A stretch of 64,000 nucleotides of DNA from Stegostoma tigrinum (taxonomy: Eukaryota), in contig NC_081385.1 in assembly GCF_030684315.1 (NCBI RefSeq), forward strand, positions 6,188,341 to 6,252,340, read 5' to 3'. The position numbers were made by a program, and so were the translations under genes. Numbering within the stretch: position 1 is the stretch's first letter; every line of letters starts with the position of its first letter. Below are positions 1,385 to 60,648 of the stretch, in pieces. The notes below the pieces were generated by a model. It was not told the origin of the DNA and searched no databases. It worked only from the letters and a program-made list of their open reading frames with translations.

Positions 1385-2245
1385 TAGAGTCGTCAAGTTA
1401 TACAGCACCAAAACAGACCTTTCGGTCAATTCATCCATGCCGACCAATTACACAAATTAATCTAGTCCCATTTGCCAGCATTTGGCCCATATCCCTCTAA
1501 ACCCTTCCTATTCATGTGCCCATCCAGATGCCTTTTAAATGTAGTAATTGTACCAGCCCCCACCACTTCGTCTGGCGGCTCGTTCCATACATGCACAACC
1601 CTCTGTGTGAAAAAGTTGCCCCTTACGTCCCTTTTAAATCTTTCCCCTCTCACCTTAAACTGAGGTCCTCGATTTTTGGATGCTCCTACCGAGAAAAGTC
1701 CTTGACTATTCACCCTATCCATGCCCCTCATGATTTTATAAACCTCTATAAGACCATCCCTGAGCCTCTGACACTCCAGGGAAAATAGCCCCAACCCATT
1801 CAGCTTCTCCCTAAAGCTCAAACCCTCCCATCCCAGCAACATCGTAAAGCTTTTCTGAACCCTTTCAAGTTTCACAACATCCTTCCCATTGCAGGGAGAC
1901 CAGAATTGAATACAACATTCCAAAAGTGCCTCAACCAATGTCCTGAACAGCTGCAGCATGACATCCTGCCTCCCATATTCAATGCAATGATTCATAAAGG
2001 CAAGGTTACTAAACACCTCCTTCACTACCCTGTCTACCTGCGACTCCACTTTCAAGGAACTATGAACCAACACCCTAAGGAAAAGTCTAGGCCCGAAACG
2101 TCAGCTTTCCTGCTCCTCTGATGCTACTTGGCCTGCTGTGTTCATCCAGCTCTACACCTTGTTATCTCAGATTCTCCAGCATCTGCAGTTCCTATTATCC
2201 CTAAGGTCTCTTTGTTTGGCAACGCTCCCCAGGGCCCTAACATTA
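1385..2245 (-). mobile_element. CR1/HER1-type LINE 3' fragment
   Basis: ORF 1462-2073 carries LERVQ...LGLFSLE...YKIMRG...FFTQRVV motifs of the CR1 ORF2 C-terminus. Interrupted at 2081-2198. Confidence 0.9.
2081..2198 (+). mobile_element. Short Penelope pseudo-LTR tail insertion starting inside a hammerhead-like motif
   Basis: Matches the terminal ~120 bp of the Penelope element at 26941. TSD ccctaagg at 2073-2080 and 2199-2206; host CR1 resumes afterwards. Confidence 0.85.
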
Positions 2246-2249
2246 TGTG

Positions 2250-2825
2250 TCAGAGCGTTTACTGGAAGAAACTCCTTCTCCTCCATCAAAGATCAATGAA
2301 ACAATTCACCTGGTCCACACCTTCGACCGAGGCATCCCTGTATTCAATGGATTGTCCACAGACATTTTTGTGAGCTGGCCCCACCTTCCCCCACACTTCC
2401 CTTTCAGTATTTTATCCCTTTGGGAACACCCTTCTGTTGCCTCTTGCACCTATTCCCTTCCCTATGGCACCTCTGTGTAAAGTGCAAGTGTAGCAAGCCC
2501 TGTACTTTCGCCTCCCTCCTTCTCACCAGCCGAGGTCTCAAGTATTCCATCCAGATGGAACAGCGATGTACTTGCATTTCACTAAGACTGGGTAACCGCT
2601 TTGTGGAACACCTCCTCTTGGGCCGCATAGATGAGCCCAAACAGCCTGTCGCTGGTCACTTTAATTCTCCTCCTTGTTCCCACTCTGACCCTCCAGTTCT
2701 TGGCCTGTTACGATGTACCAATAAACTCCAACACAGGCTTCAAAAACAGGACCTCATCTTCAACCTCAGCACTTTACAGCCTTCTGGACTTAGCACAGAT
2801 TTCAATAACTTTAGATCATAACCTG
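2250..2825 (+). mobile_element. Old Penelope-like element remnant (GIY-YIG endonuclease C-terminus)
   Basis: ORF 2420-2821 contains RLGNRFVEHL...PVAGHFNS...LIFNLSTLQPSGL, homologous to the Penelope copies at 27-28 kb and 55-56 kb. Confidence 0.75.
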
Positions 2826-2842
2826 CGTCTCCATCTTGTTCT

Positions 2843-3086
2843 TGTAGTGACTGTGACGAGGTCAGCCAGGCATACCTCATAAAATAATGGTTCCCTGACT
2901 GGGATTGTTAACATTGTTAATCCTTCAATCAGGGAGCCCTGGCTGACAAATGTAAACAGGACCGTTAAGAGGTTCTGTTCACTCTGAGAGCTGGCTCTGA
3001 TGGAGCTGGATCAGTGTCAAGGACTCTCCACATGTAAATAAAGCGTGACTAGGTGATAGGGTACCAGCCTCTGTGGAATTATTTCA
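2843..3086 (+). mobile_element. Probable solo LTR
   Basis: TG...CA termini (tgtagt...atttca), internal AATAAA near 3037, flanks gttct and gttgt (4/5 TSD), 244 bp. Confidence 0.55.
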
Positions 3087-4559
3087 GTTGTGTGTGTGTT
3101 TTTTTAATCCTATTGATCTTTCTTTCTAGCTTGCTTCTCCCTTGATCTCTCCATATTGTGCACAGGCCTCTGGAGCATGAACTGACTCCCACAAGTCTCC
3201 AGATCAGAAGCAAGAATCCTCCCCACTGAACCATTGCCAAACACCTATGTGTTAGGCCAAGTCACATCAAAAATTGGAAGGGGCAAGATATTCAGAAAAT
3301 AGTGACAGGAGCCTGAGGCCTGGCTGCTTTTTGGACACGCAATACTCATGCATACACAAAGTTCTGAAGAAGTCATATATTGGACTCAAACATCAATTCT
3401 ATTTCTTTTTCCACACATGCTACCAGCCTTGCTGAGTTTTTCGTTCAGTGTTATTTCTGCTGAGACTGGTTTTATTACTATTTTCTACATTCTCGGTCAG
3501 TTATAACTAGATCTTTCTCACTCGGTTTTTAATGGAATGCGATTTTGTCAAACATTTTGTGTAGTTTCTTTAAATGTCTCTCATTGTTTATTCATCTTTC
3601 AGCTTGTGTACGCAGAATGCGTTCTCTTGTTGTTCAGACCTCATCTGAATGTAATTTAACTGCCTACATCATGGTTGGATCTTTGGTTCTTCAGATATAG
3701 GTGTAAGGTTTTGTTAAGATCATTATGTGAATAATATTGGCCTGGAGTTACATGTTGTCCAAATTGGATGGCAGCCTGGATTCCCTTCCCTGATGGCATT
3801 CCCTGGACGAGGTCTCCTGGCCATTTTTACAATGCCAACCCACAAATCACCAGATCTTTCACAATTTCATCTCGGGAGATTTGGCCTTATACTCCCTCAG
3901 TTATTAGTCACCTACTATAAGAACTAGAGTATCATATGATTTCATACAGCATTGTACAATGCTAATCTCCACGATATGAAGGGATTTATATTTATACATA
4001 AAGAACACCATGCAATGAGAGAAAGGTCATTCACACCATTAAGCTTGTTTCTTTTACGCAGCAAATGCAAATTTCTCTATCTCCAAATCTCACCATTCAG
4101 TGTCTCCCCATTCGTAGAGTCTGGCCCAGTCTCAGAGTCATTCCCTAATCATAGTCTACCCCAGTCAGTCTTCCCTGCAGACCCTTCCCCAGTCACAGCT
4201 TCCTCCAGTCTCAGCTTCCTGAGTCAATTTCCACCACAGAGTTTACCCGAGTCAGTGAATCTTCCTCTGTCACAGAGCCTTCTGATTGCACCCTGCTCCC
4301 AGCTCAAAACATCCTCTAGCATTGACCTTCCTCCTATCTTCCTGCAACCATCTAATGTCCGTCAGAATGTACACATACATTGTTGATTCCGAAAGAAAAA
4401 TGAATACCACCCTGAAATTTGGTCAATCTTAGGGTCACCTTCTTCACTTTTCAGCTCCTCCCACAGTGTTTTATTTAAAACACAATCTCAATGTCACCCT
4501 GTCGCTATTTTCTGAATATCTTGCCCTTTCCAACTTTTGACAGCGACTTGGCCTAACAC

Positions 4560-14744: not shown

Positions 14745-17520
14745 TTCATAAGTTAATAAGATCTAGAAGCAGAATTAGGTCATTCAGCCCATTGAAGTCT
14801 CCTCCGCCATTCTATCATGGCTGGTATGCTCCTCACCCCCATTTTCCTGCCTTCTCCCCATAAACCTTCAGCCCATTGCCAATTAAAAATCTGTCTAACT
14901 CTTCCTTAAGTTTGCTCACTGTCCCAGCATCCGCGGCACTTTGGGATAGCAAATTCCATAGATTCACAACACTTTGGGAGAAGTAGTTTCTCCTCAACTG
15001 TTTTAAATTTGCTACCCCTTATCTTTAAACTATGATTCATCATTTTAGAATGCCCCACTAGAGGAAGCATCTGCTCCATGTCTATGTTATCCATACCTTT
15101 CAACGTCTTGAATACCTCAATTTGATCGCCGCTCATTCATCTAAATTCGAGACACTATAGGCCTAAACTGTTCAATCTCTCTTCATACAACAAGCCCCTC
15201 ATCTCTGGGATCAATCTAAAGAACCTCCTCTGAACCTGCCTCCGATGCCACTACATCTTTCCTCAAATAGGGAAACAAAAACTCTGCGTGGGCACTCCAG
15301 GTGCAGTCTCACCAATGCCTTGTATAGTTACAACAAGACTTCCTCATGTTCCTGTTCTATTCCTTTTGCTATAAAAGCCAACATTCCATTTGCTTTCTTT
15401 ATTATCAGATGTACCTGCATGCTAGTTTTCTATGTCTCAGGAATGAGGATACTCTACACTGGAGCTCCCTGTAGATAATAAGTCATTTTCCCATTTTTTC
15501 TGACCAAAATGCATGACTTCACACTTATCCACATTAAATTCCATCTGCCACATTTTGGCCCACTCTCGTAACCAATCTATATCCATTTGTAAGGTTCTTA
15601 TTTCCTCATTGCTATTTACTGTTGTGCCTATTTTTGTGTTGTCCGCAAAGTTGACCAGAGAGCCTTCTATCCCTGTATCCAAGTCATTAATATAGATTGT
15701 AAATAGCTGGAGTCAAAGGACCAAACCCCGTGGCACCCCACTAGTTACTTAATACCATCCAGAAAAGAAACCCATTTATCCCAAATCTCTGTCTTCTGTC
15801 CGTCAGCCAGTCACCTCTCCAAGCTAATAAATTATCCCAATCCCATGTGATCCAACCTTGTGAATTAACCTTTTGTGCAGCACTTTACCAAAAGCCTTCC
15901 GGAATTCACAAATATTCCATCGACAGGATCGCATTTATCCACTTGTTACATCTTTGAAGAGCTCTAGCAAATTAGTCAAACACGATTTGCCCTTCATGAA
16001 ACCATGCTGATTCTGGTGGATAGTGTTTTGACTTTCTGAATGTCTAATCCTAACAGTTTGCCAAGTACCTTTTCATTATTGATGTTGGTTGTTCTAAGTT
16101 GTAGCCTTTCTATTGTCTCTGACTTGCCTGTTCCAGTGGGAATGGTACTATTGTCCTCCACCATGAAAACTGAGGTAAAGTATTGATTTAGTTTCTCTGC
16201 GATTTCAGCGTTCCCTACTATTGACTCTTCAGTTTCATCCTCCAAGAGACCAACATTCACCTTACCAACTCTCTTTGCTTTTAAATACCTGTAGAAGCTT
16301 TTATCATCCTTTTGATATTTTGCACTAGTTTTCTTTTATAATTTACCATAGTTCTTTTTAATAATTTTTTAGTATCCCTTTATTTATGTTTGGAAGTTTC
16401 CCAAATCCTCCAGCCTGCCACTGGCCATTGCAGTATGGTATCCCTGAGTTTTTGACTTTATATTACCCTTGACCTCCTTGTTTAGCCATGGATTGTTTTT
16501 CGCTCCCTTACCATCTTTCTTCCTCACTGGGATATAGTTTAGTTGTGAGGAATTGGGTAGGTCCTTAAATAACTGCCACTGCTCATTTGCCATCTTACCT
16601 TTTAGCTTTCCTCCCCAATCTACTCGGCCAAATCTGTTCTCGTGCCTCTGTAATTTCCTTTGTTTAATTCCAGAACACCTCTTTGGGACTGCACTTTCTC
16701 ATCTCCAAACTGAAGTTTGAATTCCTGTTGGAATAATCCCTAGAGGATCCTTAACTATGATGTCATCAATTAATCCCTCTTCATTAAACAATAATAAATC
16801 CAGAGTAGCCTGCTCCCTGTTCCACCACATACTGCTCCAAGAAACAATCTCTAATACACTCAATGAACTCTGTCTCCAGCTACCCTTGCCAATTTAATTC
16901 TTTCACTCTGTGTGCATGTTAAAGTCACCAATGCTTATTGCCATACCTTTCTTGCAAGCCTCTAATATTTCCTGGTTTATACTGTGCCCCTCCGCAGAAC
17001 TACTGTTTGGGGAACCTATAGATTATTCCCAACGAGTACTTCACCCCTTTGCTGTTTCTTATTTCTACCCAAACTGATTCCACAGCTTACAGACAAAAGA
17101 ATCTACAGATGCTAGAATCTAGGTAGACAAACAGGAGGCTGGAAAACAGCAAGGCAGGCAGCATCTGGAGGAAAGGAGCAGTCAATGTTCCTGACTGTAA
17201 TATCTGAAATGTTGTCTATTCCTTTCCTGCAGATGCTGCCTTACTGTGCACTTTCACATTTTGATCTCCCGTGCTTATGTCATTTCTCATTACAGCACTG
17301 ATCCCTTCCTTCACCAGCAAAGCTACACCACCCGCTTTTCCTTTCAGTCTATCCCTCCGAAATGTCGTGCACCCTCGTGTATTCAATTCCCAGACCTTGT
17401 AACCGTGTCTCAGTAATCGCTACGAAATCATAACTGTTTGTTTCAATCTGTGCCATTAACACATTAATTTTGTTTTGAATGCTTTATGCATTTAGATACA
17501 AATCTTTTAAATTTGTACTA
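14745..17520 (-). mobile_element. Long decayed CR1 LINE (endonuclease to RT to 3' tail), interrupted at about 17095-17255
   Basis: FADNTKIG...WQMEFNVDKCEVMHFG (RT), AEKLNQYFTSVF and PWLNKEV linker motifs; many stops and deletions. Confidence 0.88.
17095..17255. mobile_element. Decayed fold-back insertion of Penelope pseudo-LTR tails
   Basis: Arms 'ggcagcatctggaggaaaggagcagtcaatgtt' and 'aatgttgtctattcctttcctgcagatgctgcc' are imperfect reverse complements, inside the CR1. Confidence 0.6.
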
Positions 17521-17924: not shown

Positions 17925-18172
17925 GAATGGGTTGAGGAGTGACAGATGGAGTTTAATTTGTATGAATGCGAGGTGTTGCATTTTGGTAAAGCGAACAAGG
18001 GTCTAGGCCTGAAACATCAGCTTTTATGCTCCTAAGATGCTTCTTGGCCTGCTGTGTTCATCCAGCTCCACACTTTGTTATCTTGGCAAATGGGACTTGT
18101 TTAGTTTGGAAAACTTGGTTGGCTTGGACAAATCGGACTGAAGGGTTTGTTTCTGTGCTATGACTCTATGAG
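17925..18172 (+). mobile_element. CR1 fragments joined by a Penelope pseudo-LTR tail (about 17997-18086)
   Basis: WQMEFN..CEVLHFG-like DNA, then 'aagggtctaggcctgaaacatcagc...', then a CR1 3' tail. Confidence 0.7.
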
Positions 18173-20334: not shown

Positions 20335-22480
20335 AGCACCCCCTTCACTTTAACCTCAGTGGTAGGGAAGCTTACAAAAATGATACTAGTAACTCAGGAC
20401 AAAAGTAACCATAAGTTGGAAGTGTGCATATTAATTAAAGAAGGTCAGCATGGATTTGTGAGGGGAATTAATTATGTTGGGTTAACATGTTGAGAGGTTT
20501 TCATGTGGTAATTGAGAGGGATGATAAAGATAGTGCAATAGATGTGATGTTTATAGATATTCAAAGTACTAAATAGCAGGCTTCTCAGCAAAGTTTAAAA
20601 ATGTGCAGGCGAGGTGGATTGGCTATGCTAAATTGCCCATAGTGCCCAGGCATGTTTAGGTTAGGTGAGTTAGACATGGGAAGTACAGGGTTAGGGGAAT
20701 GGGTCGAGGTGGAATGCTCTTCAGAGGGTCAGTGTGGACTTGTTGGGCCAAATGGCCTGTTTCCATACTGTAGGGATTCTATGATTTTAAAGCTGAAACC
20801 TAATTTAAAAACAGGGACAACAACAGAACGGATGCAAAGTTGGTTGAGTGGAATGGTGGAAGTAGGTTCAATTAAGTCATTCAAGAGGGTATTGGATAAA
20901 TTAGATAGAAATGGTGTTCAGGATATGGAGAAAAGGCAGGAAATTAGCACTAGATAATAGAACAGTATTGACACAATGGGCTGAATGGCATCCTTTTGAA
21001 CTGTAACAATTCTGTCATTCTGATGGGCAGGAAATAGAGAGTAGAGGTGAATGGTTGTTTTCAGTTTACCGTGAGCTCCCCAAATGCCAGCTCATGCACA
21101 CAGCTTCTCATGATCTATATTAATGATGGGGAGTGAGGTGTGTAGGGCATTATGAGAATTTGTAAATGACACAGAACTTGGAAGTATTGTGAAATGTGAG
21201 GAAGACAGTGATGGACTGCAAGAGGATATACATAGGCTGGTAGAACAGACTGACAAACACACGACAGGGAAGTGTGCAACTATAAATTGAGTAGGAATAA
21301 GGAGGAGACCAAATGTAAAGGAAAATATGCGGAAATAGGGTGTCTTGGGCCATATGTGTGTCTGAACCATTGAAGGCATCAGGACAAGTTGAGAAAGTGG
21401 TTACAGGACATTAAGGACCCTGTGCTTTATATAAAACAAAGGTAAAGTCTTCATAGTTTTACCAGACCATAGAGCTGCTCTTCAGTTACAGACAGGCAAC
21501 TGGTGGTAATTTAACCTGAGGGGCAGCACATTTTAGGTAAGAGGAGAGAATGAGAAGGAGAGGACTTCATGGTAACCTTAGCTGGTGTGGGAATTGAACC
21601 CCAAACTGTATGAATCACTCCACATCACAAACCAGCTATCCAGCCAACTGAGCCAAAACAATCCCCATAAATGCATATGAGGTCCCCAATTTATGAATAT
21701 CTGAATATTCAAATCATGCTTACAGACACAACCCGTATAGGGTTGTAATTTTAAAGGTCCAAGCATTTTCTGTACTTATGAATGGCTCATTAATATTGTC
21801 CTGCATTGTGTTTCGAGTTATGGACAAATTGATTTGCGAATAGACTCGAGATTGGAACCTGTTCACAATTCAGTAACGCCCTGTGGAGGCATAGACCCTG
21901 GAAGCAGGAAACTTATTGCGAACCTTTGCAAAACCATGGTTAAGTCTTAACTGTGTGTGCTATACTTTTGAGAAAATGTGTAGGATTTAAAGAAGCTGCT
22001 GAAACAATTCACAGGAACAATTCTAAGAATAAGGCATTTCAATTACTGCATAAATTGGAGAGCTAAGGTCATTCTCTTTGCAGGATGTTCAAAGGAGATA
22101 ATGAGAACTGCAGATGCTGGAGAGTCCGAGATAACAAAGTGTGAAGCTGGATGAACACAGCAGGCCAAGCAGCATCTTAGGAGCACAAAAGCTGACGTTT
22201 TGGGCCAAGACCCTTCATCAGAAAGGTCTATGCCTGAAACGTCAGCTTTTGTGTTCCTAAGATGCTGCTTGGCCTGCTGTGTTCATCCAGCTTCACACTT
22301 TGTTATCTCAATGTTCAAGGGAGATTGGGTAACAGTTTCCAAGATCTATAGAGATCTAAACAGAATGGTTAGAGGGCACAGATTTAAGGGGATCAGAAAA
22401 TATGGAAACTGAATCAATGACAACGTGAGGAAAGTTACTTTTACGCAGTGAATGCTGAAGATGTTGTTCAGCTTAGCGAC
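20335..22480 (+). mobile_element. Fragmented old CR1 LINE with nested SINE pieces (20600-20785, 21460-21660) and a fold-back insert
   Basis: LTSVVGKL...QHGF RT motif in ORF 20308; downstream RT and 3' remnants. Confidence 0.65.
22100..22310. mobile_element. Fold-back (inverted) pair of Penelope pseudo-LTR tails with hammerhead-like motif at the apex
   Basis: 22128-22212 is the near-perfect reverse complement of about 22228-22309. TSD atgttcaa(a/g)ggagat at 22085-22099 and 22311-22325. Confidence 0.88.
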
Positions 22481-23885: not shown

Positions 23886-26549
23886 AATTATCCATTTACT
23901 CCCATATTCTTACTCGTTCTCCACATTACGCTAGATTCAAAGAATTATTGATATGCCAGGGTGCAACTTCATTGTCAGTTTGGCTTCCCTTTAGGACCAG
24001 GATTAGATTTGAAAACGTGCCTGACATCGCTCACAACATAAAACGTCCAGCTCTTAAGGTCATAAGAATCTTGATTGAGTATATACAAAGAGGGTGACAT
24101 AAATAAAAAAAAAACAAATAAACACACTGAAGTACCCTTTAGATATTTCAGATGTAGAATTAATGTACAACGCATTAATAATATACATAGTTCATTGACA
24201 GTTGCTCATTGGTCTTCCATCTGATGCGTGCATTAACTAATCTCTATTTACTGCACTTACATCTCAGTTACAGGAACATTGCCAGAGGTCACTTCGTGCA
24301 ATTAACTCTGCAGGCACTGAACTTTTGTTATCAAATTAATTCTGAAAGGATTCGCATGGTGGCAGGGTCACTGGATTAGTAATCAAGGGTGACTAGGATC
24401 TGGGGGTGTGAGTTGAAAACCCAAGTTGGTAATTAGTAAAATTTCTTCGGTAATTCCAGAAAATAAAGCTGGCCTCAATATTGGTGATTGAGGGTTATGA
24501 ATACTCAAATGCTCACTCATACCCTTTAGGAAAGGAAATAGCCATCTTTACCCAGTCGGGCCTTCATGTGACTCCAGATCCACAATAGTGTGATTAAATC
24601 TTAGTAGCCTAGTGGTTCATTCAATTCAATTCAAGAGCAATTAGGGATTGGCAATAAATACCTGCCAGGTCACTGATGCCCATGTAAGAGAATAACTATA
24701 ACATTTTGCCTATAATGGTTTGAATGATCTCCTACCAGGTTGTGCCAGTCTATAATTCTAAAGAAGCAATTAGAATCGTAGAAACAATTAATAAAATTAA
24801 CTAACATTCATTACTTCAGAAGCACAGGATGTTTACAGTGCTGAAGGAGGTCATGTAGCTCATTGTGTCTGCACCTGAAAGCACAGATATCTAGTGAGAA
24901 GCACAAGGGCTTGATGAAGAATAGGAGGCTCAAGATCATTTGGCCCATTGAGCATCATCCTCCACAGATTTTGAACCATTTCCTTTTGTGATAGGTTCTC
25001 ATGATTCCAACAACAACTTGCATTTATGTAGCACCTTCAATGCAGTATAACAACCCATTGAAATTTTAAACAAAGTGACCCAAAATTATGCTTCTGTGAC
25101 AACTTCTGTCACCCCTCTAAGCTAATGAGGAAGTTCTCCTATTAATTAAAATTAACAGCTTTAAGACATAGTCCTCACAGTCAATGATATCCTACTGGTC
25201 AGATGATTCTGACAGCAATGCACATCAGTGCTGCATTACAGCTGAAGACCTGTGAATGAGAGAACATCAAGAGTTCAGGAAGCCCAGGAGAGAAACTGCC
25301 CCAAGAGAGATGAATTTGATATGATGCTAATCTGAGAGCAAATGAAGAGTTTGCAGTATTGCAGGGAGTGACAGTCTTACTCCATGTTGAGGAACAACTG
25401 GAGTTTTAATGGATCCAGACTGGTAGCAGTGAAGTTAGAGAGGGAACAGCCATTAAGAGTGCAGTATAGACACCCAAGGCCCAGGGAACAAAGCAACTCA
25501 CAGTACAGTTATAATAGTGTTCCCAGGAGATAAGAATAATGGTTTTGGCACAAATCATAGCAACTGGACAAACTTCTAGCTATCCCAACAGATTTCACAA
25601 AGGACACAGCCAATAATCCAATCTTGTCAGGAAATAGCATTGCGGTGTAGCATTTGATGACTTGCTTCCGGAGTAGGTTGAGGAATTTGAGCAAAGTTGG
25701 AAAGGTTGAGTTGAGACACTTAGAAAGTGTAGAGTTGACGGATTTACCAGGGATCTGGTGGCTGGGATAACGGAATATGGTCCTGAAAGTGATAACAAGA
25801 TGGTAGTTAGTTTGGGTTAAAATCAACCAATGGCAAAAGGTAGTTGTCCTAATTTTTGTTTCTATCTACAAAAGTATGACATTGCTGATGTCAAATCCAT
25901 TTGCTCATCTTCACTTCCCTACTCCTTCATATTCTATACCTAACCAAAAAATGACTGATCACAGCATTGAAAGCTCTTTTCATTTCTGTGGGACCATTAT
26001 GTTGGAATCAGGCAATAGAGTGAAGGAAGACAATTAGAATCATCGCTGGTGAGGACTCAATATTTTCTCTTGCAGCATAAAAGTTACACTCGTCTGCACA
26101 GCCCTGACACCTTAAACACATCATGAAGGAACAGGCAGCTGTTACCCACGAAATAAGAACCCAGCAGTTCCAAGTGAGCCAGGATCAAGACAAGGAGCTG
26201 CGGTAAGCAGAAATGTTTACTTGTCCAGATAGATTGCTTTGGTATGTGGCACAGTGAGGGCTGCTTGGCTCAGGATCTATTGCGGACTGCTCAGAGGGCA
26301 AGGGACATGAGTCTAGAAATAGGTACCTGCTCAATGTCAGACAGTAACTCAAACCTCAGCCAGGAAGCAACTCTCATTCCAAGGGCAGCTTGAGATAAAC
26401 TGGAGCTAATTAAATAAGGTGGCACAGAGACAAAATGGTCTCATGCTTGGACAGCGGGTAAGGAACGCAACAAACAGAATGTTATATTTGTCTTTCTTTC
26501 TTCCTGTTTGGAAATAATAGGGCAATGGAGGTTAGGATATGACTGATAT

Positions 26550-26758
26550 AAAAACAAAGTTGCTGGAAAAGCTCAGCAGGTCTGGCAGCATCTGTGACGG
26601 AAGAAAACAGAGTTAACGTTTCGGGTCTGGTGACCCTTCTTCTGACCCGAAACGTTAAATCTGTTTTCTCCTCCACAGATGCTGTCAGACCTGCTGAGCT
26701 TTTCCAGCAACTTTGTTTTTGTTCCTGATTCACAGCAGCGCAGTTCTTTTGGTTTTTA
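26550..26758. mobile_element. Fold-back element of a second pseudo-LTR family with hammerhead-like apex
   Basis: 26551-26627 is reverse-complementary to about 26644-26720; apex 'aacgtttcgggtctggtgacccttcttctgacccgaaacgtt'. Imperfect 16-bp TSD at 26532-26547 and 26760-26775 (3 mismatches). Confidence 0.85.
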
Positions 26759-26940
26759 ATTAGTATAGGGCTGATGTCTTACAACCCACCCTAAATAACC
26801 ATGCTTGCTGATTCCTTACCAAAACATTATTCAAATAAGGAGCCCCAAGTCCTGTTATTGTGGTTGCTTGTTAAAGCACAATAAGTGTACTTAAATTAAA
26901 TTATTTTTCAATTCTTGGTGTTACCAAGTCTGAGTATAAG

Positions 26941-28852
26941 AGATAACAGGAACTGCAGATGCTGGAGAATCCAAGATAACAAGTTGTAGAGCTGGATGAA
27001 CACAGCAGGCCAAGCAGCATCTTAGGAGCAGGAAAGCTGATGTTTCGGGCCAAGACCCTTCTTCAGAAATGGGGGAGGGGAATGGGGTTCTGAAACAAAT
27101 AGGGAGAGAAGGGGAGGCAGATAGAAGATGGATAGAGGAGAAGATAGGTGGAGAGGGGACAGACCAGTTAAAGAGGCGGGGATGGAGCCAGTTAAGGTGA
27201 GTGTATGTGGGGAGGTAGGGAGGGGATGGGTCAGTCCAGGGAGGACGGACAGGTCAAGGGGGTGGGATGAGGTTAGTAGGTAGGAAATGGAGGTGCGGCT
27301 TGATGTGGGAGGAGGGGATAGGTGAGAGGAGGAACAGGTTAGGGAGGCGGGGACAAGCTGGGCTGGTTTTGGGATGCGGTGGGGGAGGGGAGATTTTGAA
27401 GCTTGTGCAGTCCACATTGATACCATTGATACCATTGGGCTGCAGGGTTCCCAAGTGTTGCTGTTCCTGCAACCTTCAGGTGGCATCATTTTGGCACTGC
27501 AGGAGGCCCATGATGGACATGTCGTAAATGTAATGGGAGGGGGAGTTGAAATGGTTTGCAACTGGGAGGTGCAGTTGTTTATTGCGAACTGAGCGTAGGT
27601 GTTCTGCAAAGCGATCCCCAAGCGTCCGCTTGGTTTCCCTGATATAGAGGCCGCCACACCGTGTACAGGGTATACAGTATACCACATTGGCAGATGTGCA
27701 GGTGAACATCTGCTTAATATGGAAAGTCATCTTGGGGCCTGGGATGGGGGTGAGGGAGGAGTTGTGGGGGCAGGTGTAGCATTTCCTGCGGTTGCAGGGG
27801 AAAGTGCCGGGTGTGGTGGGGTTGGAGGGAAGTGTGGAGCAGACAAGGGAGTCATGGAGAGAGTAGTCCCTCCGGAAAGCAGACAAGGGTGGGGATGGAA
27901 AAATGTCTTTGGTGGTGGGGTCGGATTGCAGATGGCGGAAGTGTCGGAGGTTAATCCATTGGATCCGGAGGTTGGTGGGGTGGTACATGGGGATGAGGCG
28001 GATTCTTTTTTATTGTTATTCCGGGGAGGGGGTTTGAGGGATGAGTTGCGGGAAATGCGGGAGACACGGTTGAGGGTGTTCTGAACCACTGTTGGGTGTT
28101 CATTGCAGTACTTGAAAAATGAGGACATCTGAAATGTATGGGTGTGGAATGTCTCATCCTGGGAGCATTTGCGGTGGAAGCGAAGGAATTGGGAATAGGG
28201 GATGGCATTTTTGCAGGAAGGTGGGTGGGAGGAGGTGTATTCCAGGTAGCTGTGGGAGTCGGTGGGCTTGAAATGGATATCGGTTTCTAGGAGGTTGCCT
28301 GAATTGGAGACAGAGAGGTCCAGGAAGGTGAGAGAGGGTGTTAGAGATTGTCCAGGTGAACTTAAGGTTGGGCTTGAAGGTGTTGGTGAAGTGGATGAAC
28401 TGTTCGAGCTCCTCTTGGGAGCATGAGGCGGCGCCGATACAGTCATCAATGTATCAGAGGAAGAGGTGGGGTTTAGGGCCAGCATGGCTACAGAAGAGGG
28501 ATTGTTCCACGTAACCTACAAAGAGGCAGGCATAGCTTGGACCCATGCAGGTGACCATGGCCACCCCCTTTGTCTGTTGGAAGTGGGAGGAATTGAAAGA
28601 AAAGTTGTAGAGGGTGAGGACGAGTTTGGCTAAGTGGATGAGGGTGTCGGTGGAGGGGGAACTGGTCAGGCCTGTGGGACAGGAAGAATTGGAGGGCCTT
28701 TAAGCCATCTGTATGGGGAATGCAGGTGTATAGGGACTGGACATCCATGGTAAAGATGAGGTGTTGGGGACCAGGGAATTGGAAGTTCTGGAGGAGGTGA
28801 TGGGCGTGGGTGGTGTCATGGATGTAGGTAGGGAGTTCTTGGACCAAGGGGG
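26941..28852 (-). mobile_element. Penelope-like retroelement, 5'-truncated (RT, GIY-YIG endonuclease, pseudo-LTR), frameshifted
   Basis: LIFTMDVQSLYTCIPH (RT motif A), FLDLSV...FKPTDSHSYL, and CTSANVVYCIPCTRCGGLYIRETKRTLGDRFAEHL (GIY-YIG), split over several frames. Confidence 0.93.
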
Positions 28853-34713: not shown

Positions 34714-34939
34714 GTAAAATGTGAGGCTGGATGAACACAGCAGGCCAAGCAGCATCTCAGGAGCACAAAAGCTGACGTTTCGGGCCTAGACCCTTCATCA
34801 GAGAGGCCTTCCCCTACTGCATCCCTAAACCAGCCCAGTTCGTCCCCTCCCCCCACTGCACCCCTTCCCCTACTGCATCCCTAAACCAGCCCAGTTCGTC
34901 CCCTCCCCCCACTGCACCACACAACCAGCCACCAATATC
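34714..34939. mobile_element. Young Penelope pseudo-LTR insertion nested in the RT of an older Penelope element
   Basis: Perfect 18-bp TSD tcaaggttagcggagata (34696-34713 and 34940-34957). Minus-strand tail with intact hammerhead core, followed by an inverted, tandemly duplicated ~56-bp internal segment. Confidence 0.9.
34774..34801 (-). ncRNA. Minimal hammerhead ribozyme-like core
   Basis: CUGAUGA-A-GGGU(cuag)GCCC-GAAA-C-GUC. Identical copies at 45903-45930(+) and 58054-58081(-). Stem I is only about 2 bp and stem III (ACGU) can form only intermolecularly, so activity is unproven. Confidence 0.6.
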
Positions 34940-36949
34940 TCAAGGTTAGCGGAGATAAGTTCAGTGGGACAGAGACAATGGGTCAGCTGGCACAGTCAGG
35001 TTTGAGGATTTTGGGAAGGAGATAGAAGCGGGCAGTGCGGAGTTGGGGAACAATGAAGTTAGAGGCTGTGGGCGGGAGTTCACCTGAACTGATGAGGTTG
35101 TGGATGGTTTTGGAGATGATGTTTTGGTGGCTGGGGGTGAAGTCATGATCAAGGGGGCGGTAGGAGAAGGTGTTGGAGAGTTGGTGCCTGGCTTTGGCGA
35201 TGTAGACGTCAGAGCGCTATACTACAGCTGCGCCTCCCTTGTCCACGGGTTTTGTGGTGAGGTTGGGATTAGAGCAGAGGGAGCGGAGGGCAGCACATTC
35301 CGTGGGTGGTGGGGGGCGGGGGGGGGGGGGGGGCGTTGGAGTGGGTGAGACGGGTGGAGAGGTTGAGGCGATCAATGTCGCAACAGCAGTTGGAGATGAA
35401 GAGGTTGAGGGAGGGTAGGAGGCCTTGGGGTGATGCCCAGGAGGTGGGGGTGTGTTGGAGGTGGGAGGGTACGGTTAAAGAAATAGGCGTGGAGGCGGAG
35501 GCAGCGGAAAACTGTTTGATGTCCAGGCGTGAGTGGTATTCGTTGATGTGTGGGTGGAGGGGGATGAAGGTGAGTCCCTTACTGAGGACTGATTGTTCAT
35601 CCTCAGTGAGGGGCTGGTCTTGGCGGGGGGCGCAAACAGTGAATACCAGGCAGTGCCTGGGGTTGAAACCGGGTGTAGAGTTGGTAGCTAGGCTGGAGCT
35701 GGGTGTGGGGGCAAGTCTCACCCACCTTCCTGAAACCTCCCCTACTCCCACTTCCTCTGCCTCCGCTGCGTCTGTTCCCAAGATGGGCCATTCCAGTCCC
35801 AAACGTCCCAGATGTCTTCCTATTTCAAGAACTGCAACTTCATCCCTCCAGCGATCAAAAATGCCCTAACTGCATCCATTGCCTTTCCCACACATTGCCC
35901 TCACAGCCCATCCCTGCAACAAAAACAGATCCCCCTCGTCCTCACATATCACCCCACCCACCTCTGCATCCAATGTATCATTCCCTGCCACCTGCAATCC
36001 AACCCCACAACCAAAGAGATATTTTCTTCCTCACCCCATCTACCTTCCACTCTGCAACTCCTTCGTCTGCTCCACACTCCTCACTAACTCGCAGGAAGTG
36101 CTACACCTACCCCCTCACCTCCATTCAAGACACAAAGCAAACCTTCTACATTAGACAAGGGGTTCACCTGCACATCCATCAATGTAGTCTATTGTATCTG
36201 CTGCTACCGATGTGGCCTCCTCTACATCGAAGAGACCAAGCGCAGCCTCTGAGACCATTTTGTAGAGCATATGTGCTCTGTTCAGGATAAACGACAACAC
36301 CTTCCGGTCACGAACCATTTTAACTTGCCCTCCCACTCCTTAGATGACATGTCCATCCTGGGTCTCCTCAAACTGGAGGAGCAATACCTCATATTCTGCC
36401 TCGAGAGCCTATAGCCCAATGGCCTAAATGTAGATTTTACCAGTTTTAAAATCTCCCCACTCCTGGCCTCATCCCATGACCAACCCTCTCTCTCATGCCC
36501 AACCTGACACAACCTGTCCATCTTCTCTTCCACCTATCCGCTCCTCCCAACTCAATGACCAATACCTGCACTCATCTCACCATCGCACTTACCTTCCCCA
36601 ACCACACCCCTCCGCTCTCTAGTTATTTCTGAGGTCCCAGCCTCCTTCCTATTTCTGAAGAAGGGTCCTGACCCGAAATGTCAACTTTTGAGTTCCTCCA
36701 ATGCTACCTGGCCTGCTGTGTTCCTCCAGTTCCAACACTGTGTTAGCTCTGACTCCAACATCGACAGTTCTTATTGTGTCTGTCTTAAGGTCTAACTGCC
36801 CTCAGTCTCAGGACCTTCCTCCTTCCTGTTGTTTATAAAAAGAATTATAAGAGACTACTCTGAAAGGCACTGTATCAAAAAAAAAATTGGTTTTCCATTT
36901 CTCAATCGCTCACTCTATCAGTGGGAAGATCCTCTCTCTTCACCACAGT

Positions 36950-40539: not shown

Positions 40540-40573
40540 AGTACAAGCTCATACTTAGTTCTGACAGAGAGCC

Positions 40574-40976: not shown

Positions 40977-41070
40977 AGTCCTGATGAAGGGTATAAACTT
41001 GAAATGTCGACTTTCCTGCTCTTTTAATGCTGCTGACCTGCTGTGTCCCACCACTCTGTACTAACTCTGA
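40977..41070 (+). mobile_element. Short pseudo-LTR-type insert beginning with a type I hammerhead-like fold
   Basis: agtc-CTGATGA-agggt(ataa)actt-GAAA-tGTC-gact: 4-bp stem I (agtc/gact), decayed stem II. Confidence 0.6.
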
Positions 41071-44550: not shown

Positions 44551-45415
44551 TGACATATTTGTCTCACTGTATCAATCTAATAGACCAGCCTGGCTGGTCT
44601 TAAATGTGGTGTTCACAGTCATTATAAGAACTTGCATCTATACAGTGCTTTTAAGGCAATAAATACAATTCTTTGTGCTTTACAGGGGCATGATCAAAGT
44701 AAATTTGATCCCAACGCAAGGAAGAAGATAATGTGATGAAGATAACCAAAAGGCGATGAGAAACCAGCCTAAAAGGTGGAGACATTAGGGACGGAATTCC
44801 ACAGCTTTGAGTCTGGGCAGTTGAAGGCACAGCAGTCTGTGAATATCTGAGAGTGAGGGGTGCACAAAATGAGGCTGGAATTGAAGCAGCACAGAGATCT
44901 CAAAGGGTAGTGGATCTCAAGGGTGCAACTTTGGGAAGGGATGTAGTGTGGAGATACGTGAACATTAAGATGGGAATTTTAAAATTGATCAGAGGCCGAA
45001 TCAGGACCCGAGTCAGTCAGAGGTGAATAATGAATGCAAGTTTAAAAAATCAATTATATTTTGGATGGGCTTAGATTTACAAAAGGTGAAGTGTGGGAAG
45101 GCTGTTGAGTTCAGAAGTTACAAAAGCAAGGGTTGACAATTTCAGCAGTAGCTGAGATAAGATGGGTGCAGACAGATGACACACGGAAGGTGAGGGCAGT
45201 GGTCTTTGCGATGAAGAGGATTTGAGTAGGAGGACCACAAAGGATACAGAGCCTGTGAATAGCCTCAGGTGAGGGACAGAGACAATCACGTCACTCTTTC
45301 TGACGTTTATTAATAGGAAAATCTGGCTCATTTTTGGCTGGATGTTGGACAAGAAGTCTGATAAATCAGTGATTTCGAAAGAAGGGCTGAAACAGAACTC
45401 AGCGTTTCCAGTGTA

Positions 45416-46029
45416 ATAAAGTGTGGAGCTGAATGAACACAGCAGGCCAAGCAGCATCTCAGGAGCACAGAAGCTGGCATTTCAGGCCTAGACCCTTCAT
45501 CAGAGAGGGGGATGGGGAGAGGGTTCTGGAATAAATAGGGAGAGAGGGGGAGGTGGACCGAAGATGGAGAGAAAAGAAGATAGGTGGAGAGGAGGGTACA
45601 GGTGGGGAGGTAGGGAGGGTATAGGTCAGTCCGGGGAAGACGCACAGGTCAAGGAGGTGGGATGAGGTGGTAGGTAGGAAATGGAGGTGCGGCTTGATGT
45701 GGGAGGAAGGGATGGGTGAGAGGAAGAACAGGTTAGGGAGGCAGAGACAGGCTGGGCTGGTTTAGGGATGCAGTGGGGGGAGGGGATGAGCTGGGCTGGT
45801 TGTGCTATACCGTCCTCTCCACCTATCTTCTTTTCTCTCCATTTTCGGTCCGCCTCCCCCTCTCTCCCTATTTATTCCGGAACCCTCTCCCCATCCCCCT
45901 CTCTGATGAAGGGTCTAGGCCCGAAACGTCAGCTTTTGTGCTCCTGAGATGCTGCTTGGCCTGCTGTGTTCATCCAGCCTCACATTTCATTATCTTGGAT
46001 TCTCCAGCATCTGCAGTTCCCATTATCTC
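45416..46029. mobile_element. Inverted pair of Penelope pseudo-LTRs in scn2b intron 2
   Basis: Minus-oriented arm 45416-45803 and plus-oriented arm about 45810-46029. TSD agcgtttccagtgta (45401-45415) and agcatttccaatgta (46030-46044). Confidence 0.9.
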
Positions 46030-47191: not shown

Positions 47192-47761
47192 TACGGCATC
47201 CACCGCTCTCGATGTGAGACCAAGCGGAGGCCCGGAGACCGCTTTGTAGCACTCAGTTCACGACAAATGACAACACCTTCCAGTCGTGAGCCACTTCAAT
47301 TACCCCTCCCACTCCCTGGATGACATGTCCATTCTGGGACTCCTCTAGTGTCACAGTGACACCACCCACAAACTGGAGGACGTCATATCCCCCCCGGGTG
47401 CCTACAATCCAATGGTCTCAATGTGGATTTTACTAGTTTCATGATCTCTCCACCACCCGGCCTCATCCCATGACCAACCTTCCCTCTCATCCCCACCTCC
47501 TTGACTTGGCACAACCAGTCCATCTTGTCTCCCACGTATCCGCTCTTTCCACCTCACTGACCAATCCCCACCACGGCCTACCTGCACTCACCTATCACCA
47601 TCCCACGTACCTTTCCCAGCCCCACCCCTCCTCTATTTATTTCAGAGCACCGTTCCCCCTCCTCCACTTCAGAAGAAGGATCCCAACCCAAAATGTCAGC
47701 TTTCCTGCTGCTCTGGTGCTGCCTGGCCTGCTGTGTTTGTCCAGCTCCAACACTGTGTTAT
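47192..47761 (+). mobile_element. Penelope 3' fragment (GIY-YIG end and pseudo-LTR)
   Basis: Homologous to 36230-36750; perfect 12-bp TSD cactcacatttc (47180-47191 and 47762-47773). Confidence 0.85.
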
Positions 47762-48289
47762 CACTCACATTTCCAATATTAGTCCCCACAGCAAGAGGCC
47801 AACAATGTGTATTTGTGTGGCACTGTAAAAATAAAAATCCAGAAACCCTTCACTGGAGTGATTATCACAAAACAGAAGTGGACACGGAGCTGAATAAAGA
47901 GATGATGAACTAGTGTTTGGCTGCAGGAAGAGCTTGAAGCAATGTTAAAAGCTAGGAAAGGAATGGAGCAAGGCTCAAAGGGATGAGGCAATGGCCTAGT
48001 GGTATTATCACTCAGCTATTAATCCAGACACCCAGTTATGTTTTGGGAACCCAGGTTTGAATGCCACCACAGCAGATGATGGATTTTGAATTCAAACAAA
48101 TATCTGGAATCAATAAGGCATCAAGAAAGGAAATCTGCTGTCCTTACCTGGTCTGGTCTACAGACCCCTAAAACAATGTGATTGACTCTTAACTTCCCTC
48201 TGGAAAATTAGGGATGGGCGTAAATGCTGGCCTAGCCCAGTGATACCCTCATCCTGTGAATGAATCAAAAATATGGAAGCTGATGATGA

Positions 48290-49720: not shown

Positions 49721-49721
49721 C

Positions 49722-53440: not shown

Positions 53441-53444
53441 TTAT

Positions 53445-55454: not shown

Positions 55455-56900
55455 ATGACCAGATGGGCAAATGGGCTGAGGAGTGGCAGCTGGAGTTTAA
55501 TTTGGATAAATGTGAGATGCTGCATTTGGAAAAGGCAAATCAGGGCAGGACTGATACGCTTAATAACAAGGTCCAGGGGAGTGTTGTTGATCACAGAGAC
55601 CTTGGGGTGCAGATTCATAGTTCATTGCAAGTAAAGTTGCAATGTGACCTCCTCTACATTGGGGAAGCCAAGCGGAGGCTTGGGGGCCACTTTGCGGAAC
55701 ACCTCCGCTCAGTTTGCAACAAACAACTGCACCTCCCAGTCGCGAACCATTTCAACTCCCTCCCTCCCAACCCCCAACTCCTCATGTCAATCTGGGCCTT
55801 CTGCATCGCCACAATGATGCCACCCGAAAGATGCAGGAACAGCATCTCATATTTTGCTTGGGAACCCTGCAGCCCAAGAGTATCAATGTGGACTTCACAA
55901 GCTTCAAAATCTCCGCTCCTCCCAAAACCAGCCCAGCTAGTCCCCGCCTCCCTAGCCATTCCTTCCACCTCAAGCCCTACCCCTATCTCCTACCCACTAA
56001 CCTCATCCTGCCTCCTTGACCTGTCCGTCCTCCCTGAACCCCTCCCTAACTCCCCACCTACATTCACCTTCACTGGCTCTAACCTCGCCTCTTTGGTCTG
56101 TCTCCTCTCACCCTATCTTTTCCTTTATTCATCTTCTATCTGCCTCCCCCTCTCTCCCTATTTATTTCAGAACCCCCTCCCTCTCCCCCATTTCTGAAGA
56201 AGGGTCTTGACCTGAAACGTCAGCTTTCCTGCTCCTCTGATGCTGCTTAATCTACTGTGTTCATCCAGCTTCACACCGTGTTATCTCTATTATCAAAGTT
56301 GCAGATGATCAGGATACTGAAGAAGGCATTGAGTATAGGAGTTGGGAGGTCATGTTGCACTTGTACAGAACATTGATTACGCCACTTTTGGAATACTACA
56401 TTCAATTCTGGTCTCCCTGCTGTAGGAAAGATGTTGCGAAACTTTAAAGGTATCAGATAGATTTGAAAGGATGTTGCCAGGGTTGGAGGGTTTGAGTTAC
56501 AGGGAGAGGCTGAATAGGCTGGGGCTATTTTCCCTGGAGTGTCAGAGACTGAGGAGTGACCTTGCACAGGTTTATAACATCGTGAGGGACATGGAGAGGG
56601 TGAATAGTCAAGGTGTTTTCCCCAGGGTAGTGGAGAGCAAAACTAAACAGCATGGGTTTAAGGTGAGAGGTGGAAAGAGTTAACATTTTCACATGTGTGG
56701 AATGAGCTGCCAGAGGAAGTGGTGGAAGCTAGTACAATTCCAACATTTAAAACACATCAGGATGGTTATATGAATAGGAAGCGTTTACAGGGATATGAGC
56801 CAAAAGCTGTCAAATAGGACTTGATTAATTTAGGATATTTGGTCATCATGGACCAGTTGGTCCAAAGGATCTCTTCTCATGCTGTACATCTCTATGTCGC
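55455..56900 (+). mobile_element. CR1 LINE 3' portion interrupted by a Penelope fragment
   Basis: WAEEWQLEFNLDKCEMLH...DLGVQIHSSL before the insert and MLPGLEGLSYRERLNRLGLFSLE after it. Confidence 0.88.
55642..56294 (+). mobile_element. Penelope 3' fragment (GIY-YIG and pseudo-LTR with hammerhead-like core at 56194-56221)
   Basis: LLYIGEAKRRLGGHFAEHLRSV; TSD aaagttgca at 55633-55641 and 56295-56303. Confidence 0.88.
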
Positions 56901-57054
56901 TGTGATTCAGAAGTTATCCATTCCTCTGGACCCCAGTTATTCTCAGAGCAACATTACACAGGAAATATTGAAACTCCCCAGAAGGTCATCCAATACTTGT
57001 CCATGAGGATGGGTAATGAGTGGCAACAGAACATTCTACTGTGGGGCCATCACA

Positions 57055-57989: not shown

Positions 57990-58605
57990 GAGAATGAAAT
58001 GTGAGGCTGGATGAACACAGCAGGCCAAGCAGCATCTCAGGAGCACAAAAGCTGACGTTTCGGGCCTAGACCCTTCATCAGAGAGGGGGATGGGGTGAGG
58101 GTTCTGGAATAAATAGGGAGAGAGGGGGAGGCAGACCAAAGATGGAGAGAAAAGAAGATAGGTGGAGAGGAGAGTATATGTGGGGAGGTAGGGAGGGGAT
58201 AGGTCAGTCCAGAGAAGACGGACAGGTCAAGGAGGTGGGATGAGGTTAGTAGGTAGGAGATGGAGGTGCGGCTTGGGGTGGGAGGAAGGGATGGGTGAGA
58301 GGAAGAATAGGTTAGGGAGGCAGAGACAGGTTGGACTGGTTTTGGGATGCAGTGGGTAGAGGAGAAGAGCTGGGCTGGTTGTGTGGTGCAGTGGGGGGAG
58401 GGGACGAACTGGGCTGGTTTTGGGATGCGGTGGGGGAAGGGGAGATTTTGAAGCTGGTGAAGTCCACATTGATACCATTGGGCTGCAGGGTTCCCAAGCG
58501 GAATATGAGTTGCTGTTCCTGCAACCTTCGGGTGGCATCATTGTGGCACTGCAGGAGGCCCATGATGGACATGTCATCTAAAGAATGGGAGGGGGAGTGG
58601 AAATG
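57990..58605 (-). mobile_element. Young Penelope 3' fragment with intact hammerhead-like core (58054-58081)
   Basis: MSIMGLLQCHNDATRRLQEQQLIFRLGTLQPNGINVDF plus a pseudo-LTR nearly identical to 45416-45803. Confidence 0.9.
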
Positions 58606-58684
58606 CTACTGGGAGATCTATTTTCCTGTTGTCTGGTCTCTCATGCAATTTTCATTTGTCCATCATTGATTTCTATGCTATACA

Positions 58685-59040
58685 TACAGACAGGATATTG
58701 AAGGGGCTTGACAGGTTGGACATTGATTAGATGTCTCCTCTTGTAGGAAGAGCAGGGAGGAGGCAACATCTTAAAACTTAAAACTGTGTCTCCCATTCAA
58801 AACAGAGAAGATTAGAATTTTTTTGTCTCAGAGAGTCATGACAGTGAGGAACTCTCTTGCCCAGAGAGGGGAGGAGGTGGGGTTACTGAATACTTTTAAG
58901 GCTAAGGTAGACAGATTTTTAATCAACAAATGAATCAAAGATGGGGTTGAGGCTACAATCAGGTCAGCCACAAATTTATCAAATGGCAGAGCAGGCTTGA
59001 AGGGCTGAATAGCCTTCTCCTGCTTCTAATTGATGTGGTT
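58685..59040 (+). mobile_element. CR1 3' tail remnant
   Basis: FFxxRV-like region and tail 'gcaggcttgaagggctgaatagcct'. Confidence 0.7.
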
Positions 59041-60534
59041 ACATGCAAATAGGTACGTTTAGCTACCTGGTCCCCAAGCCCTGGAAGCCCTTCCCTGCAC
59101 CTTTCCACTCCTAAGTCCTTCATTAAGAAACTTAACAGCCACAACTTTGACCAAACGTTTAATCACCTCTCCTAAAATCTCCCTTCATTCTATTAGTGCT
59201 AATACCTGTGGCTGAATAAATTTCTCCAATGTTTTACTAGGAATGTTTTACTTGGGATTATCTAAACGCAAACTGTCACTTCTAAATGCAACAAAGGATG
59301 CCAAATGTTTTCCCTGAAGAATATAGGCCTCCAGTACTTCAATCGGCAAGGACATCTGGTGTCAGATTTAGGAATTCCATGATTTCTAACCTGTGTGATG
59401 GTGGGCTTGGACAGGAAGATAGATACAAGCAGAATGACAGCAGGGTTCACTGCTCTCGGGGGACACTGAATATGTGGCTGAGAAATGTCTTCAGAAAATA
59501 AATGGATCATCCTTGTTTGAGGGTTACAGAGGTATTAATAGATCAGATATGTTCTGGAAGGACGTTATAAAGGGTTAGAGAGATTTTAATAGACCAAATT
59601 ATCTTCAGGAAGGGAATGAATGACTGGTATGAAGCTGTGGAATGAGTTGTGATTTTTTTAAAATTCACTCACAGGATGTGGTCATTGATGGTTGGATGGG
59701 CATTTATTGCCTGTCCCTGCATGCCTTTAGAAAGTTGTTGTGAGCTGCCTTTGTGAACTGTTGCAGTCCACTTTCATGAGGTAGATCCATAAGGCCCTGA
59801 GGGAGTGAATTCCAGGATTTTGTCCCAGTGACGGTGAAGGAATATATTTCCAAGTCAGGATGGTGAGTGCATCAGAGGCGAACTTGCAAGGGGTGGTGTT
59901 CCCATGTATCTGCTGCCCTCGTCCAGATGGAAGTGGTTGTGGGTTTGGAAGGTGAAGGTGAAGCTTTTCTTCTCTTGCACTCATCAGGGAAAATACAGAA
60001 ATGTCAAATTTGAGATCGCAACAATTTTTATGACAGAAGAAAGGACTGATTAGTAAATTGACGCTAATTGGCTGAAGCATTGCCATGGAGAAAACAATGC
60101 GAAACTATAGGTTCCTCCACGATCCCAATCAGGCCAATCAGAGTCAACCTGCCAAACAAATCAACCTTTTCTCCTCTTGTACTCTAAAATGTTCTGAGCT
60201 TTCCAAATTTAGCATTTAGCATTTTTGTTTTAGTCTGTAACATGTCAGTAACAGGTCTCTGATTTTAGCAAGGTCCAAGCTCTGCACTACCAAGTACATG
60301 TTTAATTGCCTAATTCTCATCTTGAGCTGTCTTGCATCCTCAGAAGATCTGAATTAGATCTGAAACCAACCAGATTCTACTCCTGTAATTGATATAAAAA
60401 CTAACAAGCCATTAGTGAAAATACTTTCACAGTTTGGATTTATTTTCTAATTTGATTATTGAATTATTGCAATTTGCAATATGGACTGCAGTCAATGTGG
60501 GATTTTTGTTAAAATTTGAAAGAACTGCGCATAC

Positions 60535-60648
60535 TGTAAATCAGAAACAAAACCAGAAATTGCTGGAAAGGCTCAACAGCTCTGATAGCATCTGTGGAGA
60601 GAAATCAGAGTTAACGTTTCAGATGCAGTGACCCCCTCCTCAGAACCA
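60535..60648 (-). mobile_element. Single-arm copy of the 26550 pseudo-LTR family, starting at a hammerhead-like fold
   Basis: Minus strand ggtt-CTGAGGA-ggggtcactgcatct-GAAA-CGTT-aact; body matches the 26551-26627 arm. Confidence 0.7.

Follow-up and report, generated by a model that had tools for sequence, protein, structure and literature searches.

The inserts and their parent element

The window analysed here, 64,000 nucleotides (nt) of Stegostoma tigrinum contig NC_081385.1, holds a series of inserts that, judged by their sequence, are 3' pieces of Penelope-like elements (PLEs) encoding a reverse transcriptase (RT) and a GIY-YIG endonuclease (EN). The short inserts among them share a 5' boundary at a hammerhead ribozyme motif, and it is this boundary and its possible origin that are described below. 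Two reading frames, 27476-28515 and 35269-35865, have matches of 52-83% among the predicted proteins of whale shark, zebra shark and bamboo shark, and these shark proteins carry the Pfam domains RVT_1 and GIY-YIG, some with scores below the curated cut-off; none of six decayed frames from the window itself gave a Pfam match. A Cys linker (CNRRKCYTC) precedes the endonuclease in the copy at 26939-28845. According to a passage of the literature, a zinc-finger-like Cys linker between RT and EN is common to Neptune and Nematis, and the clade of the element described here is likely Neptune.

Positions are numbered from the C of the CUGANGA block, which is +1, the base before it being -1. On the reference copy, which lies on the minus strand, 58081 is +1, 58082 is -1, 58085 is -4, and 58053 is +29, the first base past the predicted hammerhead cut, which follows +28. 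The element runs from an open reading frame (ORF) through approximately 300 nt of pyrimidine-rich sequence to the minimal type I hammerhead, a further 65 nt or so, and an optional tail of 33 nt. There are thus two classes of 3' end 33 nt apart, at approximately +94 (the short site) and +127 (the long tail); an optional tail of 30-40 nt is expected of EN-bearing (EN+) PLEs. The hammerhead has the features of the minimal PLE type, namely CUGANGA, an unpaired base, stem II, GAAA, a palindromic stem III and UH, and in the window copies stem II is 94% and stem III 89% paired. Stem I has 2 base pairs (bp) in family A, the main family, against 4-5 bp in the PLE type; the copy at 40977 is the only one with 5 bp. 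Covariation did not exceed that of shuffled sequences (155/500), and a search of Rfam gave no matches at the gathering score. In the young subfamily (45903-45932) the predicted lowest-energy fold pairs CUGA with UCAG, hiding the catalytic core. An ATG inside CUGAUGA opens a 13-codon frame (45906-45947) in this subfamily only, and is absent from the CUGAAGA variants.

Breakpoints at the hammerhead block

The initial annotation had reported short inserts that begin or flip orientation at the ribozyme block at 2081, 3361, 17997, 22222, 26641, 34806, 40977 and 60648, and all eight coordinates do hold a hammerhead-bearing segment that starts or changes strand at the CUGANGA/stem II block. The clustering that it described is real, but eight arms of the same family that run 97 to about 2400 nt further upstream had been omitted. 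Statistics were carried out on 13 arms from 10 insertions of family A, leaving out the pair at 17090-17252 and the four sites of other families (3361, 26641, 40977 and 60648). Of the 13 arms, five have their start in the interval -6 to +11, the interval +12 to +65 contains none, and eight begin further upstream, at -97, -302, -524, -571, -592, -1164, approximately -1790 and approximately -2400. As an ascertainment control, profiles were built from sequence downstream of the GUC only, and with these no family A arm started between +12 and +65, where steep truncation models expect 2-5 starts. For a fixed position, the chance of 4 of 10 insertions (5 of 13 arms) falling between -6 and +11 was P <= 0.004 under four truncation models. 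When the position was left free, simulation gave P = 0.0001 to 0.11, so that the window taken alone is only moderately strong evidence.

The four sites outside family A come from more distantly related families that lack a long copy in the window, and their breakpoints therefore rest only on flanks that are not pyrimidine-rich. Pyrimidine content is 25-54% in the flanks of short arms and 71-79% in those of long arms, and the same 5' boundary recurs in at least three families. Self-cleavage was rejected as the source of the boundary: the ends lie 22-34 nt upstream of the cut, close to the 20-30 nt given in the initial annotation, which had likewise discounted simple self-cleavage, and none of the 13 family A arms starts at +29.

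Loose ends in public contigs

Contigs from four of 24 listed public runs (X1, X3, X5 and X9) were aligned to 57990-58325 at 90% likeness. X1 and X3 are large runs from a single study, and X9 is a run of a related species; X5 is RNA-like by size only, and its larger depth step was not used as evidence of expression. Loose ends were taken from the six rows listed per run, with some ends uncounted, and summed contig depth is not a copy number. Pattern scans for the element gave no match in viral or metagenome contigs, and protein-led scans gave none in viral or prokaryote contigs.

Among the rows listed, the top 5'-side loose end in X1 and X3 was 58082 (-1), with 376 and 377 contigs, followed by 58085 (-4), with 124 and 132 contigs; these were the only 5'-side rows among the six of each run. 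Together they account for 500 of 3138 (X1) and 509 of 3283 (X3) partly aligned contigs, at least 26-fold over uniform, so the even spread of breakpoints that would have spoken for a random boundary was not seen. Since the loose parts are long, mixed and T-rich (agreement 0.36-0.38), they are flanks rather than the upstream region of another subfamily. Summed contig depth rose downstream of the boundary in all four runs (4.2, 3.9, 7.3 and 13.3-fold), and upstream depth was nearly flat in X1 and X3. On the sense strand, flanks are A-rich before the 5' end of the element and T-rich after its 3' end (57993-58006, 58082-58085), a symmetric AT-rich target signature.

A boundary of this kind could be an artefact of alignment or ascertainment if a conserved ribozyme meets a fast-evolving pyrimidine tract, so that diverged subfamilies look clipped at the junction. 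At -2 and -4 the older subfamilies do deviate from the reference, and clipping is thereby moved to -1 even when copies start at -3 to -6, and four of the eight sites of the initial annotation have no long parent in the window. However, the loose ends are long (median at least 255), mixed and T-rich rather than a G-rich continuation, target duplications abut or enclose the short inserts, and the flanks of short and long arms differ in pyrimidine content. We regard such an artefact as highly improbable.

A candidate RNA start at the boundary

We consider it likely, with a probability of roughly 0.7, that the single 5' boundary shared by the short 3'-end copies, 1-5 nt before the hammerhead core, represents a capped transcription start reached by run-off. 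In both large runs the first base of the loose consensus at -4, read on the complementary DNA (cDNA) strand, is C, and a single additional C is present in each of the six listed joints that depart from 58079-58085 (four distinct joints, perhaps 2-4 events). There is thus a tendency for -4 ends to have one additional G, as is seen when a cap is copied; a G of this kind distinguishes capped, full-length insertions of L1 (PMC11702581). An initiator (Inr) or TCT-like match with its start base at -4 was found in all eight long copies. Five older copies have YYANWYY with A at -4, and three young copies have a pyrimidine TCT-like match with C at -4, against upstream background match rates per nt of 0.010-0.021 for Inr and 0.004-0.062 for the TCT-like pattern. 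The Inr consensus used for scoring was taken from the literature. The change at -4 from A in older copies (27070) to C in the youngest subfamily (45899) is possibly a switch of promoter type.

Penelope transcription starts inside the pseudo-long terminal repeat (pseudo-LTR) from an internal promoter (PMC2377424), and the Anolis protein is described as cutting and extending both strands, priming at two internal sites that bound the tail, and copying the template up to its 5' end, with ribozyme cleavage unnecessary (PMC11167929). On the proposed mechanism, RNA polymerase II would start at approximately -4 inside the pseudo-LTR, and each transcript would thus bear RT priming sites near its own 5' end. 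RT primed at the tail sites, 100-130 nt downstream, would run off the RNA end and leave a cDNA of 100-130 nt; priming at the downstream pseudo-LTR would give long, randomly truncated copies. The ribozyme would mark the boundary only because it comes first in the transcript, and its cut at +28 would rarely be recorded.

Several observations weigh against a capped start. A second Inr match lies at -29 to -31 in seven of the eight long copies with no peak among the listed rows, so that the motif alone proves little, and the long copies scored for the initiator share ancestry. The larger peak, at -1, has the loose consensus AAAGG, not the AATC expected of a capped Inr start at -4, and is probably a mixture. 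Three window arms start at +7 rather than -4, and +7 is absent from the rows listed for X1 and X3. X9 shows the depth step, but only two loose ends near the boundary. The two large runs come from one study, one of them (X1) is possibly the window's own source, and six loose-end rows were listed per run. All runs are contigs, and the 5' end of the RNA is read from DNA ends. Finally, no partial tandem (pseudo-LTR followed by ORF) was found in the window, where no copy has a tail leading into an ORF.

Another possibility is that RT stops or switches template just past the ribozyme on a longer RNA, owing to RNA or cDNA structure, or that repair trims G-rich cDNA beyond -5. Stalling or template switching at the folded ribozyme had been proposed in the initial annotation, and the switching part is in keeping with contig joints that skip from -1 to -5 to -72, -99, -114 and -158. 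At 34806 one arm stops at -5 and its partner derives from -361 to -292, so a long RNA was present, and in the young family +1 to +30 can fold as one hairpin with its 5' base at +1. Stalling fits poorly: RT comes to the fold from its 3' side, so that ends at approximately +30 would be expected, but the observed ends are at the 5' side, where copying of the motif is already complete. Moreover, the ribozyme fold is no more stable than shuffled sequences (z -0.35 to +1.49), folds on the cDNA side are weak (-2.8 to -4.3 kcal/mol), and eight long arms read through. Stopping or switching would also leave the extra C and the initiator match unexplained, and two templates per insertion are plausible given the differing arms at 45.4 kb. 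We think this origin unlikely.

An RNA end at approximately -4 could also be made by processing (splicing, nuclease action or recapping) rather than initiation. In Drosophila virilis, the 5' edge of helix I is where the intron terminates (PMC4209133), and an acceptor-like TTYCAG lies at approximately -23 in several long copies. Yet there is no AG at -4 or -1, the short copies share no upstream exon, and no GT..AG ends were seen on the sense strand among the listed joints; processing thus seems very improbable. A spliced leader was ruled out, as the short copies have no common upstream exon. A downstream promoter element like RGACGTGY is not claimed, only its ACGT core being present, in a shifted position.

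Head-to-head insertions

Target duplications were accepted for seven of the 15 insertions examined (Table 1): five head-to-head insertions have duplications of 14-21 bp, and two single-arm inserts have duplications of 8-9 bp. None beyond chance was found at 3361, 17997, 40977, 17090, 27 kb, 47 kb or 58 kb, and at 60.5 kb there was only a T-run. An inverted, 5'-truncated partner with a target duplication, a feature of EN+ PLEs, is therefore present here. Four of the pairs have one arm of each 3' end class, short and long. Since neither arm's span lies within that of its partner at 26.5, 33-36 and 45.4 kb, these three of the five pairs cannot be the product of one cDNA folding back on itself; fold-back could have produced the pair at 22 kb. 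The arms at 45.4 kb differ at four subfamily positions within +77 to +86, which suggests that they were copied from two RNA templates, although later conversion may account for the differences.

The simplest reading of the pairs, by analogy with the reaction in vitro, is priming from both cut strands. Each of the two cut target strands would prime a cDNA, one per tail site, and the two cDNA ends would be joined, often via 2-4 nt of shared sequence, into a head-to-head pair. End joining would shift some starts to +7 to +17. Pairs would flip at the ribozyme if both cDNAs ran off the same start, and elsewhere if they did not.

Relation to a separate class and to known elements

The initial annotation had suggested a ribozyme-delimited, non-autonomous element class mobilised by Penelope RT/GIY-YIG machinery. 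The machinery is supported by the results, as are a non-random boundary away from the cleavage site and template switching at that boundary, and the separate class is not: the short inserts probably arise as side products of the full element. In a tree of arms (13 rows, 70 columns) short and long arms are intermingled, the short and long labels changing four times against a mean of 4.0-4.1 when labels are shuffled, although the tree is weak (none of eight branches well supported). The short arm at 34801 is 100% identical to the long arms at 58081 and 45903 over +9 to +75, and the template at 34806 was long, as its partner arm shows. None of 18 tandem rows in the window holds the hammerhead motif, so that two or more head-to-tail units each with a hammerhead, as in retrozymes, were not found there. 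With regard to short interspersed nuclear elements (SINEs), the inserts consist wholly of PLE sequence, with no head derived from transfer RNA (tRNA), 5S or 7SL for RNA polymerase III, no tRNA and no Rfam family, and the arm tree gives them no lineage apart from their partner.

A dedicated short family with its own master copies, SINE- or retrozyme-like and mobilised in trans, might nevertheless be considered. The depth step suggests that short copies may outnumber long ones by approximately 3 to 1, and retrozymes are reported to derive from PLE pseudo-LTRs (bioRxiv 10.64898/2026.07.22.740005). A contig joint in both X1 and X5 ties the exact cut site, 58053 (+29), to the short tail end at 57993, the only indication that RNA in cleaved or circular form occasionally serves as template. 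Against such a family stand the scatter of short arms among long ones, the missing hammerhead tandem and tRNA or Rfam head, and the recurrence of the boundary in several families, and we find it improbable. Candidate explanations of the 58053-57993 joint are a jump from a cleaved template, a tandem unit or a circle. Other joints lead from the 5' boundary back to +31/+32 (58050-58051) and +38 (58044), giving short direct duplications of the ribozyme that are possibly the seed of tandem units. More speculatively, strong-stop-like cDNA from cap to tail may be the commonest PLE product. Since the promoter would be internal and both priming sites lie no more than 130 nt from the start, mini-copies might themselves be transcribed and re-mobilised, a self-seeding SINE-like unit reborn from each subfamily and a source of pseudo-LTRs and retrozymes; this we consider doubtful.

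Poseidon of Anolis carolinensis (PAc; Frangieh et al. 2024, PMC11167929) resembles the present element in its hammerhead within the pseudo-LTR, two RT start sites bounding a tail of 30-40 nt, cutting and extension of both strands, AT-rich targets, and ribozyme cleavage that is unneeded and unseen in RNA reads. It differs in that the ORF here has a Cys linker of the Neptune/Nematis type and the ATG in the hammerhead core opens only a 13-codon frame; the main text on PAc makes no mention of a fixed 5' boundary, an extra G or an initiator. Accounts of EN+ PLE insertions (Craig et al. 2021, PMC8557442; Arkhipova et al. 2013, PMC3846280) describe the same 5' truncation, inverted 5'-truncated partners, optional tail at one end, target duplications and solo pseudo-LTRs. 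In these accounts truncation is variable, solo pseudo-LTRs are possible recombination products, and inversions arise via self-priming on an antisense template, whereas here the starts are concentrated at a single site and simple fold-back is ruled out for three pairs.

The D. virilis Penelope promoter (Schostak et al. 2008, PMC2377424) likewise has a start and an internal Inr-type promoter in the pseudo-LTR. Its start lies 46 nt before a 75-nt intron ending at helix I, while the predicted start here abuts stem I and no intron intervenes. Non-LTR retrozymes (Cervera and de la Pena 2020, PMC7229834; Li et al. 2026 bioRxiv) are also short, non-coding, type I hammerhead kin of PLE pseudo-LTRs. They are described as head-to-tail arrays cut at the ribozyme site into circles; the inserts here are single or head-to-head and begin 30 nt before the cut. 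L1 insertions (PMC11702581) share the extra G at complete 5' ends and, when inverted by twin priming, duplications of 12-18 bp and junction microhomology, but L1 arms cover adjacent parts of one RNA, whereas here both arms usually cover the same 3' segment.

How PLE pseudo-LTRs and inverted partners form is stated to be unresolved in papers on these elements. If the boundary is a transcription start, the genome itself locates that start with a precision of a few bases, run-off products would account for the long-recognised surplus of solitary minimal hammerheads, and two sense-strand primings would be favoured over self-priming on antisense RNA. The original observation is thus confirmed and its interpretation partly supported, and the finding refines what is known of Penelope biology, adding a mechanism that can be tested rather than a new element class.

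Other features of the window

Table 1. Hammerhead-bearing insertions and related features (window coordinates; element positions relative to the C of CUGANGA).
Feature	Position	Strand	Description	Target duplication
Short single-arm insert	2081..2198	+	stem II (~+3 to +11) to long tail end; inside older LINE-like (CR1-like) repeat	exact 8 bp, 2073-2080 / 2199-2206
Decayed short insert, second family (B-like)	3361..3465	+	start ~-3 (-3 to -5); 3' end approximate	
Old head-to-head pair, further family	17090..17252		junction near ribozyme block; too decayed to place	
Short single-arm insert	17997..18086	+	+7 to short tail site	
Head-to-head pair	22095..22310		left arm (-) -1 to -5 to long tail; right arm (+) +7 to +12 to short site	15 bp (14/15), 22085-22099 / 22311-22325; last 5 bases match tail end
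Head-to-head pair, family B	26548..26759		left arm ~+1 to short site; right arm ~+17 to long tail	16 bp (13/16)
Long 5'-truncated copy	26939..28845	-	decayed RT, Cys linker, GIY-YIG region, pyrimidine-rich 3' untranslated region, ribozyme at 27066, long tail	
Long head-to-head pair, older subfamily	32990..36781		- arm ~2.4 kb to N-terminal ORF part; + arm 35716-36781	14 bp (12/14)
Young insert	34708..34939		left arm (-) short site to -5; right arm (+) element -361 to -292 with 56-bp duplication	exact 18 bp, 34696-34713 / 34940-34957
Short decayed insert, further family	40977..41065	+	start ~-4/-5 (-3 to -5); 5-bp stem I	
Head-to-head pair, junction not at ribozyme	45414..46029		left arm -302 to short site; right arm -97 to long tail	~18-21 bp
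Predicted initiator	45897..45904	+	-6 to +2; predicted RNA start 45899 (-4)	
Hammerhead core	45903..45930	+	type I minimal: CUGAUGA, unpaired A, 4-bp stem II, GAAA, palindromic ACGU; predicted cut after 45930	
Optional tail	45997..46029	+	33 nt between two TTATCT(C) ends (+94, +127)	
Long 5'-truncated copy, older subfamily	47214..47765	+	ends at short site	
Long 5'-truncated copy	55642..56294	+		exact 9 bp
Young long copy	57995..58605	-	-524 to ~+87	
Short family B insert	60519..60648	-	start ~-3/-4 (-3 to -5); long tail	
Eight long family A arms	45903, 45503, 58081, 47670, 56194, 36655, 27066, 33057		97 to ~2400 nt upstream	

The window is full of decayed repeats. Fragments of long interspersed nuclear elements (LINEs), which we take to be CR1-like, are numerous (1384-2100, 4988-5325, 49453-51718 and 56326-57741); one frame from these fragments gave no match in Pfam. 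The old pair at 17090-17252 was absent from the list of the initial annotation. The young insert at 34708-34939 interrupts an older copy of the same element group (32990-36781). The insert at 17997 has on its two sides parts of a CR1-like repeat that are not neighbours within that repeat (17900-18200), which suggests that this insertion came with a target deletion.

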